From a virus: a stretch of DNA of 64,000 nucleotides. Position numbers and translations under genes: made by a program. This document shows, in pieces, positions 197-17,774 of the stretch (its first letter is position 1; the number at the start of each line of letters is the position of its first letter). The DNA is taken from the IMG/VR virus record IMGVR_UViG_3300032223_001420, positions 1 through 64,000 of that record, one strand, 5' to 3'. The notes below the pieces were generated by a model, which saw nothing but the letters and a program-made list of their open reading frames with translations, did no database searches and was not told the origin of the DNA.

Positions 197-399
197 ATAT
201 CATTAATTGTGTTATTATGGAAAATTCCAGTGATCGCTGGATAGTGCTTCCCGAAATGACTTGTTGTCCGGATTATTCAAGTCTATAGGGTGTGACTGAC
301 GAAAAACCTATGACGATAGGAACAATAAGAGCAGTCCTATTAAATGCAAACCCTAGGCGGTGAATCCTAGGTATAACATGATAACACAATTAATGGTAT
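197..399 (+). ncRNA. Unidentified ~200-nt multibranched structured RNA between tRNA-Lys and tRNA-Gln
   Basis: 197-219 pairs with 377-399 (23 bp, two G-U pairs); internal helices 226-241, 258-283, 285-340 (with the 307-320 hairpin) and 352-371. Confidence 0.7.
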
Positions 400-3099: not shown

Positions 3100-3865
3100 A
3101 AATTTCGCAATCGATCCATTTTAGATTATTATATTTGTCATACAACCAACTTCCTTTAGGTATTAAACATTTACCCAACTCTGGTGATTGTTCTATACGT
3201 ACCTGAACGACTGCCCAAACTAACCAAATGAAATAGATGATGAACATTGTTGCTAATCCATATTTCCATGCTTCACATTTGATTTTGTTAATTCTTTTCT
3301 TCTTCAGTATTGCCGCTTCTCTTTCCTTTTTCATTTTGATGCCAATAGCAATACTTTGTTCTTCTTGGATTCTTTCCATCATCTTTTCAACTTTGGTATA
3401 TAAATCACCCAATTCAGGAGGACTCTGATACACCATAATCTCACGAAGTTCAGCCTGCATGGCTTGAAGTTTGGTTTGCATTAGAACACGCTGCAAAGCA
3501 CGTTTACCTACACTATGCGGTCCTTCATAAACTTCGTATGCATGTCTTTCTTCTTCTTGAAAGATAGCCATACAAGTTGCCATGTTTTCGAAGTAAGCAC
3601 CTAAGTTCTCACCGATGACCGTATAGATATCATCGGGCTGTTTTTTGCTTAGTTCTATTACACGATTTTTTTCTTGGATGTACTGATTATGTTCAGCAAC
3701 GGTAGGAGGGCGATCTTTATGTCGGTCGTGGAACTGCGATTCAAGGTCTGTAAGAACACCCTTGACATCACTGGCGGCAGATGCAATTTCTTTGTAGAGT
3801 TTGCATCCTTGTTTAACTGCGGCGACTGCACCATTTGCTAAGGCAAAGAGGGTTAGTGGATCCAT
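3074..3865 (-). CDS. Hypothetical coiled-coil membrane protein
   Basis: MDPLTLFALANGAVAAVK...; coiled coil plus a C-terminal TM helix (YGLATMFIIYFIWLVWAVV). Confidence 0.75.
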   Translation of the reverse strand: MDPLTLFALANGAVAAVKQGCKLYKEIASAASDVKGVLTDLESQFHDRHKDRPPTVAEHNQYIQEKNRVIELSKKQPDDIYTVIGENLGAYFENMATCMAIFQEEERHAYEVYEGPHSVGKRALQRVLMQTKLQAMQAELREIMVYQSPPELGDLYTKVEKMMERIQEEQSIAIGIKMKKEREAAILKKKRINKIKCEAWKYGLATMFIIYFIWLVWAVVQVRIEQSPELGKCLIPKGSWLYDKYNNLKWIDCEIYDIQRNNR

Positions 3866-7594: not shown

Positions 7595-8092
7595 ATGAGA
7601 ATTGAGAATACACCACTTGATGGTGTGAGATTAGTTAAGCCTGATGTTTATGAAGATTATCGTGGCACAAACTTTGAACTATACAACGAAACAAAATTTC
7701 GTGATGAGGTTATATTCAACAATTTTGTAGTAGATAGTATTTCCACATCACGCAAACATACTCTCCGTGGTATTCACGGAGATAATAAAACTAAAAAACT
7801 TGTGTCGTGTCTGTATGGTACTATTCATATGGTCATCATCAATCGTGATCCCGATTCGAAACAATATAATAATTGGTTCCACATCACACTATCAGATCGC
7901 AACAAATATCAACTGTTGATACCACCAAAGTTTGGTAATGGTCATTTGGTCATGTCTGACGAAGCAGTGTTCAGTTACAAGTTAAGTGAATACTATGGCC
8001 GTGAATCTCAGTTCACAATCAAGTGGAATGATCCGATGCACAATTTCTTTTGGCCAATTAAAAATCCTATTCTTTCTGAAAGAGACGCATGA
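7595..8092 (+). CDS. rfbC: dTDP-4-dehydrorhamnose 3,5-epimerase (RmlC/RfbC family)
   Basis: D.RG.F.E, S.S...LRGIH, IPP.FG.G, YK....Y, W.DP motifs. Confidence 0.88.
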   Translation: MRIENTPLDGVRLVKPDVYEDYRGTNFELYNETKFRDEVIFNNFVVDSISTSRKHTLRGIHGDNKTKKLVSCLYGTIHMVIINRDPDSKQYNNWFHITLSDRNKYQLLIPPKFGNGHLVMSDEAVFSYKLSEYYGRESQFTIKWNDPMHNFFWPIKNPILSERDA

Positions 8093-9042
8093 GAACAGCA
8101 TTGGTAACAGGTGGTGCAGGTTATCTAGGTAGTCATTTAGCAAAAGCATTAAAGAAAGCAGGTTACACTACAATCTGTTTTGACATTAAATCACCACGCA
8201 ATATGCTGTACTGGAATTATACGATAATTGGCGATGTTCGTTCGAATATTTTAAAAATAGCATTTGCTGAACATCCAATAGATGTTGTATTTCATCTAGC
8301 AGGTCGAATTGAAGTTGGTGAATCTGTAGAAAATCCAGAATTGTTCTGGGATGTGAATGTGGGTGGCACAACAAACCTACTTAATATAATGAGAGAAAAA
8401 AATGTTAGGAATATTGTTTATTCTTCTACTGCCGGTCTATATCGTTCTTCTGGGACGAACCTCTCCGAAAAAGATCAAATAGATGACAACAATCCGTATG
8501 CCAATAGCAAGTATGCTGCGGAGTGTGCAATTCGTAATTCAACTATGAACCATATTATTTTTAGGTTCTTCAATCTTGCTGGTGCTGATCCAGATGGTGA
8601 AATGGGTGAGATGCATAATCCAGAGACGCATCTGATTCCAGTGATGTTCGAAAATCTAAATAATTTCATTATTAATGGTAAGGGTTATAGAACACCAGAT
8701 GGTACATGCATTCGAGATTTCGTACATGTATCTGATGTTGCTGATGCTCATGTCGCTGCTGCCGACTATATGCAAACACGACTGCCAAATCAACCAACTC
8801 TATTCAATCTAGGAACAGGCAAAGGATATTCAGTATTGGAAGTAATTCATGCTGCTATTGAAGAACTTAAAATACCTATCAATTACGGATTCGGAGAACG
8901 GCGTGAAGGTGATCCACCACGACTTGTTGCTATCACAGACCTTGCTAAAAAACATTTAAAATTCAAACCTAAACACGACTTAAAATCTATATTGAGAACG
9001 GCATACGCTTGGCATGAAAAACACAGACGAAATAACATTTGA
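8089..9042 (+). CDS. galE: UDP-glucose 4-epimerase (extended SDR)
   Basis: TGGAGYLGSH, VGESV..P, SSTA, PYANSK (YxxxK), R.FN.AGA, HLIP, DGTCIRDFVHV, R.GDP. Confidence 0.9.
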   Translation: MRTALVTGGAGYLGSHLAKALKKAGYTTICFDIKSPRNMLYWNYTIIGDVRSNILKIAFAEHPIDVVFHLAGRIEVGESVENPELFWDVNVGGTTNLLNIMREKNVRNIVYSSTAGLYRSSGTNLSEKDQIDDNNPYANSKYAAECAIRNSTMNHIIFRFFNLAGADPDGEMGEMHNPETHLIPVMFENLNNFIINGKGYRTPDGTCIRDFVHVSDVADAHVAAADYMQTRLPNQPTLFNLGTGKGYSVLEVIHAAIEELKIPINYGFGERREGDPPRLVAITDLAKKHLKFKPKHDLKSILRTAYAWHEKHRRNNI

Positions 9043-9547
9043 CGATCACAACCACTTTCTTACTGGTGAAATAAACGGTGAGAGTGTAGAGAAAGCGATT
9101 CGTTGGATTATGATGGGTTCAAACAATCCATCACCAGATCATCCAATGAGGTTGTATATTAATTCAGATGGGGGCAGTCTAATCGACGCATTTGCTTTGG
9201 TAGATGTAATGCGTACTTCTCCTGTACCTATCGCTACTCTCGGCATGGGTAATCTGATGAGTTCTGCATTTATGATATTTGCTGCTGGTACATTAGGTAA
9301 ACGAGCAATCGCTAAAAACACCAGTATCATGATTCATCAATTCAATTCCGACTATACTGGTAAGTACCATGACATGAAAGCATATGCTGAAGAGATTGAT
9401 AGAATCAATTATCGCATGGTTGCAGAGTTAGCACGAAACGGTAATTTTAATGAAATGGAAGTATCAACCAAACTATTGAAACCGAGCGATGTTTGGTTAA
9501 CCGCAGAGGGATTGGTAGAACTCGGATTTGCAGATATCATTTTCTAG
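9014..9547 (+). CDS. clpP: ClpP protease-like subunit
   Basis: LYINS.GG, MSSA (Ser), IMIHQ (His), SDVWLTA...GFAD.I (Asp). Confidence 0.88.
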   Translation: MKNTDEITFDDHNHFLTGEINGESVEKAIRWIMMGSNNPSPDHPMRLYINSDGGSLIDAFALVDVMRTSPVPIATLGMGNLMSSAFMIFAAGTLGKRAIAKNTSIMIHQFNSDYTGKYHDMKAYAEEIDRINYRMVAELARNGNFNEMEVSTKLLKPSDVWLTAEGLVELGFADIIF

Positions 9548-16810: not shown

Positions 16811-16932
16811 GTGATGATAAAAAAGAACCTAAAACACCACTCGATCATTTCGAACGCTGGTTTGATATAGCACTTCGATTTGGTTGGTGTTTGTTCATTT
16901 ATGTGGTTGTCACTGGCAATTACATAAGATAG
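16807..16932 (+). CDS. Small membrane protein (41 aa, not in the ORF track)
   Basis: MSDDKKEPKTPLDHFERWFDIALRFGWCLFIYVVVTGNYIR; ATGA overlap with the previous stop. Confidence 0.55.
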   Translation: MSDDKKEPKTPLDHFERWFDIALRFGWCLFIYVVVTGNYIR

Positions 16933-16934
16933 AA

Positions 16935-17200
16935 TTGTTGTAATCCCTTCAAAGCGAAGGCATGTTGGACGAGGGTTCGATTCCCTCCATCTCCACCAAA
17001 AGCATATTGTGTAGTATGTTTTTGATGGGGATGACCAGGTTTCGACAGCGTGAGATAGTGGAGACGGCAACACGGTAGGCGATGACCGTAAATCAAGCAA
17101 AACTACAAATGCAAATGACGCATTTTATGGTGAGGATCGCCTAGCAGCGTAACTCACTTGGGGTTTAGGGAGTGTCCTTATTAACCAATCACTCCCACCA
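16935..17200 (+). ncRNA. ssrA: Circularly permuted (two-piece) tmRNA
   Basis: The acceptor piece GGACGAGGGTTCGATTCCCTCCATCTCCACCA (ends 16998) precedes the 5' piece GGGGATGACCAGGTTTCGAC (starts 17027); G3-U70 pair; tag ANDAFYGEDRLAA* at 17111-17152; outer boundaries approximate. Confidence 0.92.
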
Positions 17201-17213
17201 AATTTTATACATT

Positions 17214-17774
17214 ATGAAAATCTATAAATCAAATTACCGTAATCATTGGATTTCTCCTTACACTATTTTGGAGAAAGTTTTCTTTTGGCGTGAGATTGAT
17301 TATAATGAACCGATTATAGAGAAGTGGTCTAATCGTCTAAATCCAATCTGTGTAGCATGGCATGATTTTCTTGACTTTGTGCATCCACGAATCAGTTATG
17401 TGAAGATTGATCGGTATGATACATGGTCAATGGATGACACATTAGCAGATATCATTCTACCTATGTTAAAGCAGTTGAAGGAAACAAAACACGGTTCACC
17501 ATTCGTAGAAATGGAAGATGTGCCGGAACACCTTCGTGGTACAACTACCGAAGATTGGGAACCTCAATTTACCTTTGATTTTTATGAAGAAGATAAAGTA
17601 AGAGAAGGTATAAATGATGTTCATGCTCGATGGGATTGGGTAATGAATGAAATGATTTATGCATTTGAAAGGAAAGCAAACGATACTGATTGGTCAGCAA
17701 CTTGGGAAGAAACTGAACGTATGCAGAATGGATTCCGCTTGTTTGGCAAGTATTACCAAGGTCTCTGGGATTAA
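17214..17774 (+). CDS. Conserved phage hypothetical protein
   Basis: YDTWSMD.TLA.II.PML.QL...HG.P...GF.LFGKYY..LWD pattern. Confidence 0.75.
   Translation: MKIYKSNYRNHWISPYTILEKVFFWREIDYNEPIIEKWSNRLNPICVAWHDFLDFVHPRISYVKIDRYDTWSMDDTLADIILPMLKQLKETKHGSPFVEMEDVPEHLRGTTTEDWEPQFTFDFYEEDKVREGINDVHARWDWVMNEMIYAFERKANDTDWSATWEETERMQNGFRLFGKYYQGLWD

Follow-up and report, generated by a model that had tools for sequence, protein, structure and literature searches.

A previously uncatalogued structured RNA of about 200 nucleotides in the tRNA islands of uncultured T4-like phages

We analysed a 64-kb window of viral DNA, the first part of the 86.5-kb IMG/VR record IMGVR_UViG_3300032223_001420 (CheckV completeness estimate 48%), and found that a 203-nucleotide (nt) element at 197-399 on the plus strand, set between two transfer RNA (tRNA) genes, is almost certainly a genuine structured RNA gene. 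Its fold, its match to a covariance model and the covariation among its homologues describe a five-way junction closed by a long helix, P1, and the element represents a previously uncatalogued structured noncoding RNA family of about 200 nt. Its carriers are a small set of uncultured aquatic phages of the T4-like type; one structural protein of the window shares 24-27% identity with tail or structural proteins of T4-like cyanophages and a pelagiphage. The reading we favour, with a probability of roughly 55%, is that the element is an accessory, single-copy, trans-acting structured RNA that is released from the tRNA-island transcript and probably associates with itself.

The element fills the gap between tRNA-Lys and tRNA-Gln apart from 4 nt. 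ARAGORN placed tRNA-Lys (UUU), with an encoded CCA end, at 121-196 on the plus strand (Rfam tRNA score 69.7 bits), and ARAGORN and Rfam placed tRNA-Gln (UUG) at 404-479 on the same strand. The 3' end of the former and, beyond the linker CAGU (400-403), the 5' end of the latter bound the element, as the original prediction had it: a start directly after the CCA of tRNA-Lys and a stop 4 nt before tRNA-Gln. RNAfold gave -63.5 kcal/mol for 197-403 on the plus strand compared with -42.1 ± 3.9 kcal/mol for 200 shuffled sequences (z = -5.51; 0 of 200 as good), and the minus strand of the region folded more weakly (-54.0 kcal/mol, z = -4.33). An unbroken 23-bp helix joins 197-219 to 377-399 in the RNAfold structure. 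Its only non-Watson-Crick pairs, U200·G396 and U216·G380, are the two G-U pairs that had been predicted, and the U216·G380 wobble is retained in 10 of 12 homologues. The covariance model, R1, scored the element at 251.3 bits on the plus strand and at 27.7 bits on the minus strand. Among 697 paired cells of the alignment there were 58 G·U cells versus a single A·C cell, which indicates that selection acts on the plus-strand transcript and that the plus strand is the RNA; together with the covariation described below, this asymmetry backs the earlier claim of RNA-level selection on that strand. No conserved open reading frame (ORF) was present. The sole ATG-started frame stops after 15-26 codons at varying places and is missing from the homologue L181, so that a small peptide gene was ruled out and the prediction that no ORF accounts for the element stood.

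Exact-pattern scans with pieces of the element recovered it in 16 records besides the window's own, from IMG/VR, Joint Genome Institute metagenome contigs and one contig of a metagenome-assembled genome (MAG). These contained 12 distinct full-length sequences with 77-97% identity to the window, as well as partial copies cut by contig ends in L164, L172 and L188. Two alignments were used, one fitted to the covariance model (A3, 15 rows) and one built with MAFFT and not fitted to the model (A2). RNAalifold and the covariance model agreed on seven helices, all described here on the plus strand. P1 is formed by the 5' arm at 197-219 and the 3' arm at 377-399, the latter supported by both RNAfold and covariation; it is rich in AU and spans 19-23 bp across the family. 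Its family core is the 21-bp helix of 199-219 with 377-397, the outer two pairs being specific to the window; 11 of the 21 core pairs showed compensatory changes and 99.2% of cells were paired. The A-rich junction J1/2 (GAAAAU, 220-225), invariant at all but one position, leads to the P2 hairpin (226-241; UCCAGU at 226-231 with GCUGGA at 236-241), which has a variable 4-nt loop. The six pairs of P2 never vary, so that covariation is uninformative about this helix, for or against it. The P3 arm (246-293) consists of P3a and P3b, separated by conserved internal loops. In P3a (246-247 and 249-251 with 288-290 and 292-293), two of five pairs were compensatory: the C251-G288 pair becomes U-A in five sequences, and the covarying segments U249-C251 and G288-G290 change together, TAGGG to TAAGG alongside TCCC to CCTC, in five sequences. 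P3b (258-263 with 278-283; 4/6 pairs compensatory) carries a terminal loop at 264-277 with the self-complementary hexamer UCCGGA at 267-272. P4 (294-336, pairing 294-298 with 332-336; 2/5 pairs compensatory) encloses two conserved A-rich internal loops and P5 (307-311 with 316-320; 2/5 pairs compensatory), the loop of which is an invariant GACG. The junction J4/6 (337-351) ends in the invariant AAAUGCAAAC and is followed by the P6 hairpin (352-371, pairing 352-357 with 366-371), with an invariant 8-nt loop, CGGUGAAU, compensatory changes in two of six pairs and 100% of cells paired. The invariant UAUAA of J6/1 (372-376) completes the junction, and the next base, C377, begins the 3' arm of P1.

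The inner hairpins anticipated at 226-241, 258-283, 307-320 and 352-371, together with the GACTG/CAGTC helix (294-298 with 332-336), recur in this consensus. One predicted helix did not survive: ATAG (285-288) with CTAT (337-340) forms in the window and is unconserved, with 72.9% of cells paired, no compensatory pairs and a result no better than shuffles. It was dropped, and the G-rich segment pairs with the upstream UCC instead.

The original prediction had proposed a homologue search followed by a covariation check, and both supported it: 23 of the 54 consensus pairs showed compensatory changes, identically in A3 and A2, with 98.6-98.8% of cells paired. Such changes were present in every helix except P2. 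None of 500 shuffles of A3 reached any of five measures, and sliding the pairing partners by 1-3 columns left only 2-5 compensatory pairs. In a blind scan of column pairs, pairs within the structure were about 40-fold enriched (roughly 40% versus about 1% of random column pairs). Unpaired positions were more constrained than paired ones, with 53 of 92 unpaired columns invariant versus 50 of 108 paired columns, and 52 of 77 unpaired columns invariant when the P3b loop was left out. The P1 sequence of L181 has been replaced completely and still pairs, and the junctions and loops of this homologue are essentially unchanged. This replacement, taken with the greater conservation of unpaired columns, argues against a mobile inverted repeat or a mere processing hairpin. 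Pseudoknots were considered and none is claimed: hundreds of spurious pairs arose among unpaired columns, because most of the changes sit in few lineages.

The family is narrow, and later scans kept returning the same contigs. Running R1 over 187 sources (about 1.4 Mb) confirmed the relatives found by pattern and brought in no member from outside the close family. Another three pattern scans, of viral contigs, returned only known members and two chance matches in coding sequence (L169 and L171); a metagenome scan gave 8 real and 7 chance matches among 15, and a genome scan gave one real partial match (L188) and two chance matches among three. Blastn against 50,697 GenBank phage records matched 17 of them, all by short chance matches (E ≥ 0.7, query cover ≤ 18%). 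Among 80 loci sharing the neighbouring 68-residue protein, neither nhmmer nor blastn detected the element (best E 0.98). A weak R1 match at L170:2919-3127 was rejected, as it folds no better than shuffles (z = 0.07). The element was present in a single copy in six of six records, namely the window's own and five others, one of which is a complete 214-kb genome with terminal repeats. The partial copy L188 lies on a 523-bp contig (JAPOKG010000087.1) of an Actinomycetota MAG bin, where the 3' two thirds of the element are followed by tRNA-Gln and tRNA-Tyr. This contig is most likely a mis-binned phage fragment, and as a hint of the host it is weak at best.

A comparison with Rfam 15 (4227 models) at gathering score returned only tRNA and transfer-messenger RNA (tmRNA) matches in the window and none within 197-403. 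When the threshold was relaxed to E values up to 10 over 100-520, only tRNA-derived matches and tmRNA_permuted (11 bits, E 4.3) appeared, and in ten related loci (80.6 kb) all 130 Rfam matches were tRNA. The predicted novelty thus withstood the Rfam comparison, and the suggestion of a possible new RNA class in a tRNA island is backed by a conserved, covarying fold with no Rfam match. The papers searched gave no description of the element; one of the 224 motifs in the supplement of PMC5737381 could be related to it, even though Rfam should include them. Orphan structured RNAs in phage tRNA islands are a known kind, and it is this particular family that is undescribed.

The element sits in the tRNA islands in a consistent manner. 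In all 19 loci, every ARAGORN tRNA within 1.5 kb lies on the strand of the element. In the window these include, besides the two flanking genes, tRNA-Glu (1-67, truncated by the contig start), tRNA-Trp (519-592) and tRNA-Ser (599-685), all on the plus strand and found by both ARAGORN and Rfam. On the 3' side, 18 loci include the 3' end of the element, and in 15 of these a tRNA starts no more than about 10 nt beyond P1. Which tRNA it is (Gln, Ser, Tyr, Asn or Cys) differs among the phages, and the outermost P1 pairs of L166/L183 and L181 share bases with its start. The contig of L162 stops 27 nt beyond the element, and in L163 and L172 the next tRNA lies 385 and 212 nt away, respectively. On the 5' side, the element directly follows the CCA of tRNA-Lys (window and L177) or of tRNA-Glu (L162, L166/L183 and L181), and in the tRNA-Glu cases the ACCA of the tRNA is incorporated into the P1 helix. 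In loci without a directly adjoining upstream tRNA, the element is preceded by other structured spacers.

The element also behaves as a separable module. Within the first 12 kb of the window, nothing but the tRNAs and the element aligned with the other phages that carry it (for example 96% over 191 nt with L170), and the element is 77-97% identical between phages whose coding flanks barely align. The closest relative of the window, L002, has a neighbouring protein that is 91% identical and coding flanks that are 82-84% identical, and the alignment breaks at 197-392, where a different 109-nt long-stem hairpin occupies the slot between tRNA-Lys and tRNA-Gln. The lack of the element in its closest relative indicates that the element is accessory and modular. 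L176, L180 and L184 hold both the L002-type hairpin and the element between tRNA-Lys and tRNA-Gln, so that the simplest history is the loss of one module or the other.

Other structured spacers were observed in these islands. The hairpin of L002 (883-991) belongs to a second spacer family, which we call hairpin A, whose members run from the ACCA of tRNA-Lys or tRNA-Glu to a terminal AUAUGGU; it also occurs at L163:7629-7720 on the minus strand (19-bp stem, z = -7.0) and after tRNA-Lys in L086 and L088. A 152-nt spacer between tRNA-Arg and tRNA-Met, at L176:68-219 (minus strand) and identically at L184:4113-4264 (minus strand), has an 18-bp closing helix and inner hairpins (z = -5.0). A conserved stretch of about 190 nt, module B, lies directly upstream of the element at L170:~9030-9222, L174:~3416-3637 and L128:~7957-8173, and blastn also found it in seven loci without the element (L139, L083, L156, L141, L135, L149 and L095). 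Module B shows apparent compensatory changes, has no Rfam match in L170, L174 or L128 and is not matched by R1; it is probably another uncatalogued RNA of a separate family. Relatives lacking the element contain a 201-nt spacer between tRNA-Ser and tRNA-Trp (L003:3690-3890 and the same place in L005) that R1 does not match either.

The terminal loop of P3b is the most variable part of the element, and a self-complementary 6-nt word is found at a similar position in all four of its variant classes. The word is UCCGGA in the window (267-272) and eight other main-group sequences, GAUAUC in L163/L172, CCCGGG in L181 and UGAUCG, with G·U pairs at its ends, in L162 and L167; L164 is cut within this loop. 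Three of the four classes thus have a Watson-Crick 6-nt palindrome, which is expected in 7-20% of shuffled loops, and multiplying the shuffle rates ourselves gave a chance of about 0.003 for three independent palindromic classes. The G·U-ended fourth class is unremarkable alone (42% of shuffles). Self-duplex energies of the GC-rich UCCGGA and CCCGGG loops were -12.5, -14.7 and -12.9 kcal/mol, values as low occurring in at most 1.5% of shuffles, and by this measure three of five loop variants stood out. A palindrome within a hairpin loop cannot fold on itself, which suggests either a kissing contact between two copies or, less specifically, pairing with the GG that is invariant in the P6 loop. 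As the P6 loop never varies, covariation has no bearing on a contact between it and the P3b loop. The palindrome is a hint of a dimer rather than a finding, and we hold dimerisation through kissing P3b loops only tentatively, at less than even odds.

No sigma-70-like promoter or plus-strand terminator-like site was found within the element or immediately ahead of it; the closest promoter-like sites are at 488-517 and 705-733. In the scheme that we propose, which draws on established tRNA maturation, the element would have neither a promoter nor a terminator of its own and would be transcribed with the tRNA island. RNase P, cutting where the adjoining downstream tRNA begins, would make its 3' end and leave a tail of 0-9 nt; in the window, the CAGU at 400-403 would be the tRNA-Gln 5' leader that stays on the element. 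The source of its 5' end would be either the endonucleolytic cut freeing the upstream tRNA's CCA or cleavage of P1 by RNase III. The remaining P1 would shield both ends and yield a stable RNA whose amount is tied to that of the tRNAs; that P1 hides the ends and the RNA therefore persists is our inference. Release of the element as a stable species is somewhat more probable than not. Processing stalks of this general kind are familiar from rRNA operons, where a long helix in the polycistronic precursor joins the two ends of an RNA and is cut by RNase III, and the 3' end of MALAT1 is made by RNase P at the downstream tRNA-like mascRNA. The ends of the element likewise pair in a long helix, and the downstream tRNA supplies the RNase P site; the analogy is one of biogenesis alone, as the enclosed RNAs are unrelated to the element. 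Once released, the compact fold would act in trans as a scaffold, with a partner bound through the invariant A-rich junctions and loops and two copies possibly joined by the P3b hexamer as a kissing-loop dimer. As its target, our best guess would be some part of tRNA or translation metabolism, whether of the host or of the phage. A more ambitious version appears unlikely. In it the element, made by the phage from its tRNA precursor, would assemble into an RNA-only particle as a small cousin of OLE, ROOL and GOLLD, with dimers or higher oligomers formed through the covarying P3b loop and the A-rich junctions, and would capture or organise tRNAs or another translation component during infection.

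Of 24 candidate sequencing runs, each with at most 0.20 of the sampled words, four (X1-X4), which are labelled RNA libraries from freshwater (three) and marine (one) samples of four studies, were compared at the level of assembled contigs; stretches without cover carry no weight. Contigs covered 201-305 (X1), 325-446 (X2), 235-393 (X3) and 203-393 (X4) at a word depth of 3-10 and with 3-15 differences, and thus span 105-191 nt of the element or close relatives. Some continue into unlike flanks. In two RNA runs, one contig each showed a joint without the element, 196-399 in one case and 196-404 in the other, with 23-28 letters on the shorter side. Relatives of the element therefore occur in RNA libraries, which does not by itself establish transcription.

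The most substantial competing explanation is that the element works in cis, as a processing or insulating spacer in which P1 separates neighbouring tRNAs of the polycistronic precursor, either as a site for RNase III or by insulating their folding, and the excised interior is waste. A duplex of 21-23 bp is the size that RNase III accepts, and the two ends of the spacer form just such a duplex, a near-perfect flanking stem above the approximate 20-bp mark (23 bp in the window, 21 bp in the family core). Long-stem hairpins starting from a tRNA ACCA also occur in L163, L002 and L176, at the sites given above, and L002 has its different hairpin in the same Lys-Gln slot. Against this stand the 52 of 77 invariant unpaired interior positions and the compensatory changes of four inner helices across phages whose coding DNA cannot be aligned; L181, moreover, changed its stem wholly and kept its interior, whereas a function of the stem alone would predict the reverse. 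A role in processing based purely on the stem is unlikely, and we regard the cis spacer as a whole as improbable, if still the strongest of the alternatives. The multi-helix junction and its many invariant, A-rich unpaired nucleotides, which are typical of compact tertiary folds, and the position directly against tRNA ends would also suit a ribozyme or aptamer that acts on the tRNA precursor or a small molecule. However, no Rfam ribozyme or riboswitch matched even at E values up to 10, and no expression platform follows the element. An island, which may have 16 or more tRNAs, contains a single copy, so that it cannot process all of them in cis; we regard a catalytic or ligand-binding RNA as improbable.

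Phage tRNA islands are thought to counter tRNA-cleaving host defences, and tRNA-Lys, -Glu, -Gln, -Tyr and -Asn, all of which neighbour the element in one phage or another, belong to the classes targeted by anticodon nucleases. A tRNA-like decoy that soaks up such a nuclease is favoured by this context alone. Neither ARAGORN nor the Rfam tRNA model recognised a tRNA-like part in the element, none of its hairpins has a 7-nt anticodon-like loop, and its P6 loop shares only GAAU with a T-loop; we consider a decoy very improbable. The decoy, sponge or ribozyme roles floated in the original prediction are so far unsupported, the folds containing no hairpin that resembles an anticodon loop. Least credible of all is a mobile element of the miniature inverted-repeat transposable element (MITE) type, or a recombination scar, in which the P1 arms would be terminal inverted repeats at the DNA level. 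Its inverted termini of 19-23 bp, its precise gain or loss as a module between close relatives, its position between different tRNA pairs, and the two element-free contig joints would fit that description. MITEs such as the Correia-like elements, however, are present in many copies and in either orientation, with conserved terminal repeats, a variable interior and a target-site duplication. The element, by contrast, is single-copy in every record counted, including the complete genome, is oriented as the tRNAs in 19 of 19 loci, shows no target-site duplication in flanks examined by eye, has its least conserved sequence at the termini and its most conserved in the interior, and bears the G·U over A·C excess of one-strand RNA-level selection. 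A MITE, a peptide gene and chance were ruled out by the single copy, the lack of a conserved ORF and the strand-biased conserved structure.

Several points weigh against the released, self-associating, trans-acting RNA that we prefer. The 21-23-bp helix may be cut by RNase III instead of protecting the ends, and long hairpins fill other spacers of these islands as well, so that some of the selection could be acting in cis. With 12 full sequences the family is small, most of the changes come from about four lineages (the main group, L167, L163/L172 and L181), and many of the compensatory ones go back to one lineage alone (L181, L167 or L163); an all-against-all column scan yields many spurious 'covarying' pairs, and the invariant P2 is without covariation support. 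The AU-rich GAUAUC and UGAUCG loops have self-duplex energies of only -5.6 and -7.0 kcal/mol, which about 30% of shuffles match, and the P3b loop might instead pair intramolecularly with the invariant P6 loop, a contact that the sequences suggest less specifically. The RNA-library contigs show neither ends, strand nor abundance, some of them bridge the element into its flanks, and DNA carry-over is possible. Nor is a partner protein encoded nearby: TROVE, RNase III, RtcB and reverse transcriptase (RVT_1) genes were absent from all three records inspected, namely the window's own (48% complete), G001 (complete) and G002, and absence from fragmentary records proves little.

Among RNAs already described, those of the T4 tRNA cluster offer the closest setting. 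T4 rnaC and rnaD, known as species 1 and 2 (139 and 119 nt), are annotated as stable RNAs without function (NC_000866), and like the element they are small, lack an ORF and adjoin a tRNA on the tRNA strand inside a T4-type cluster. Term searches of PMC2330249 and PMC3014915 turned up no passage on the T4 stable RNAs. They differ from the element in structure: rnaC folds with a T-arm of the tRNA type and lacks a long closing helix, the fold of rnaD is not distinguishable from shuffles (z = -0.83), and the element is longer, with a five-way junction closed by a 21-23-bp helix. A search of T4 68000-76000 with R1, filters off, gave a best score of 10.1 bits and no match overlapping rnaC or rnaD. 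ROOL and GOLLD are described as phage or prophage RNAs that are often near tRNA islands and whose function is unknown (10.1101/2024.12.08.627333; PMC5737381), and as forming homo-oligomeric cages through covarying kissing loops and A-minor contacts (10.1101/2024.12.08.627333). The element resembles them in its tRNA-island location, its A-rich invariant junctions and its variable yet self-complementary loop. It differs in size, ROOL and GOLLD (about 580 to more than 800 nt) being three to four times larger, and in having one five-way junction; their Rfam models did not match it at gathering score or at E values up to 10, and whereas they oligomerise, oligomerisation of the element is a hint from its sequence. 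Bacterial Y RNAs (YrlA), bound by Ro60, have 5' and 3' ends that form a long helix as in the element, and PMC4201824 reports some as phage-encoded. This identity was rejected, as there was no Rfam match, no tRNA-like module and no TROVE/Ro60 gene in three element-bearing records, including a complete genome. A retron msr-msd RNA was rejected on the absence of an RVT_1 reverse transcriptase from three of three records, and a signal recognition particle (SRP) Alu domain because no SRP family was among the Rfam matches at E values up to 10.

Further features were noted in the islands and elsewhere in the window. The spacer between tRNA-Gln and tRNA-Trp (481-518) contains two copies of the direct repeat TTTAAGTTTACA, conserved in L002 and L003, which form a sigma-70-like site, TTTACA-18-TACAAT (10/12 matching positions); this site resembles a promoter internal to the tRNA island. 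A strong sigma-70-like TTGACA-17-GATAAT with an extended TG lies at 705-733, 7 nt before an ATG at 741. In the complete 214-kb phage L170, ARAGORN detected a tRNA with the anticodon UUA ('tRNA-Stop') about 1.1 kb downstream of the element, possibly an ochre suppressor. The window also encodes a permuted, two-piece tmRNA at 16889-17243, which scored best with the betaproteobacterial model (154.9 bits) and for which ARAGORN gave the tag ANDAFYGEDRLAA.

Phage tRNA islands have repeatedly yielded conserved structured RNAs of unexplained role, from rnaC and rnaD to ROOL and GOLLD. To these the present element adds a fold of about 200 nt that is cleanly backed by covariation, with many invariant unpaired nucleotides and a candidate dimer loop, the hint that is new here being the self-complementary P3b hexamer of all four variant classes. 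Interest in it is tempered by its narrow distribution. At this size it is far more tractable than RNAs of 600-800 nt for probing, mutational pairing tests, cryo-electron microscopy and crystallography. Borrowing the ends made by tRNA processing would be a simple route by which a phage makes an RNA without giving it a promoter or terminator, and a partner, if found, could explain why such RNAs reside among tRNAs.

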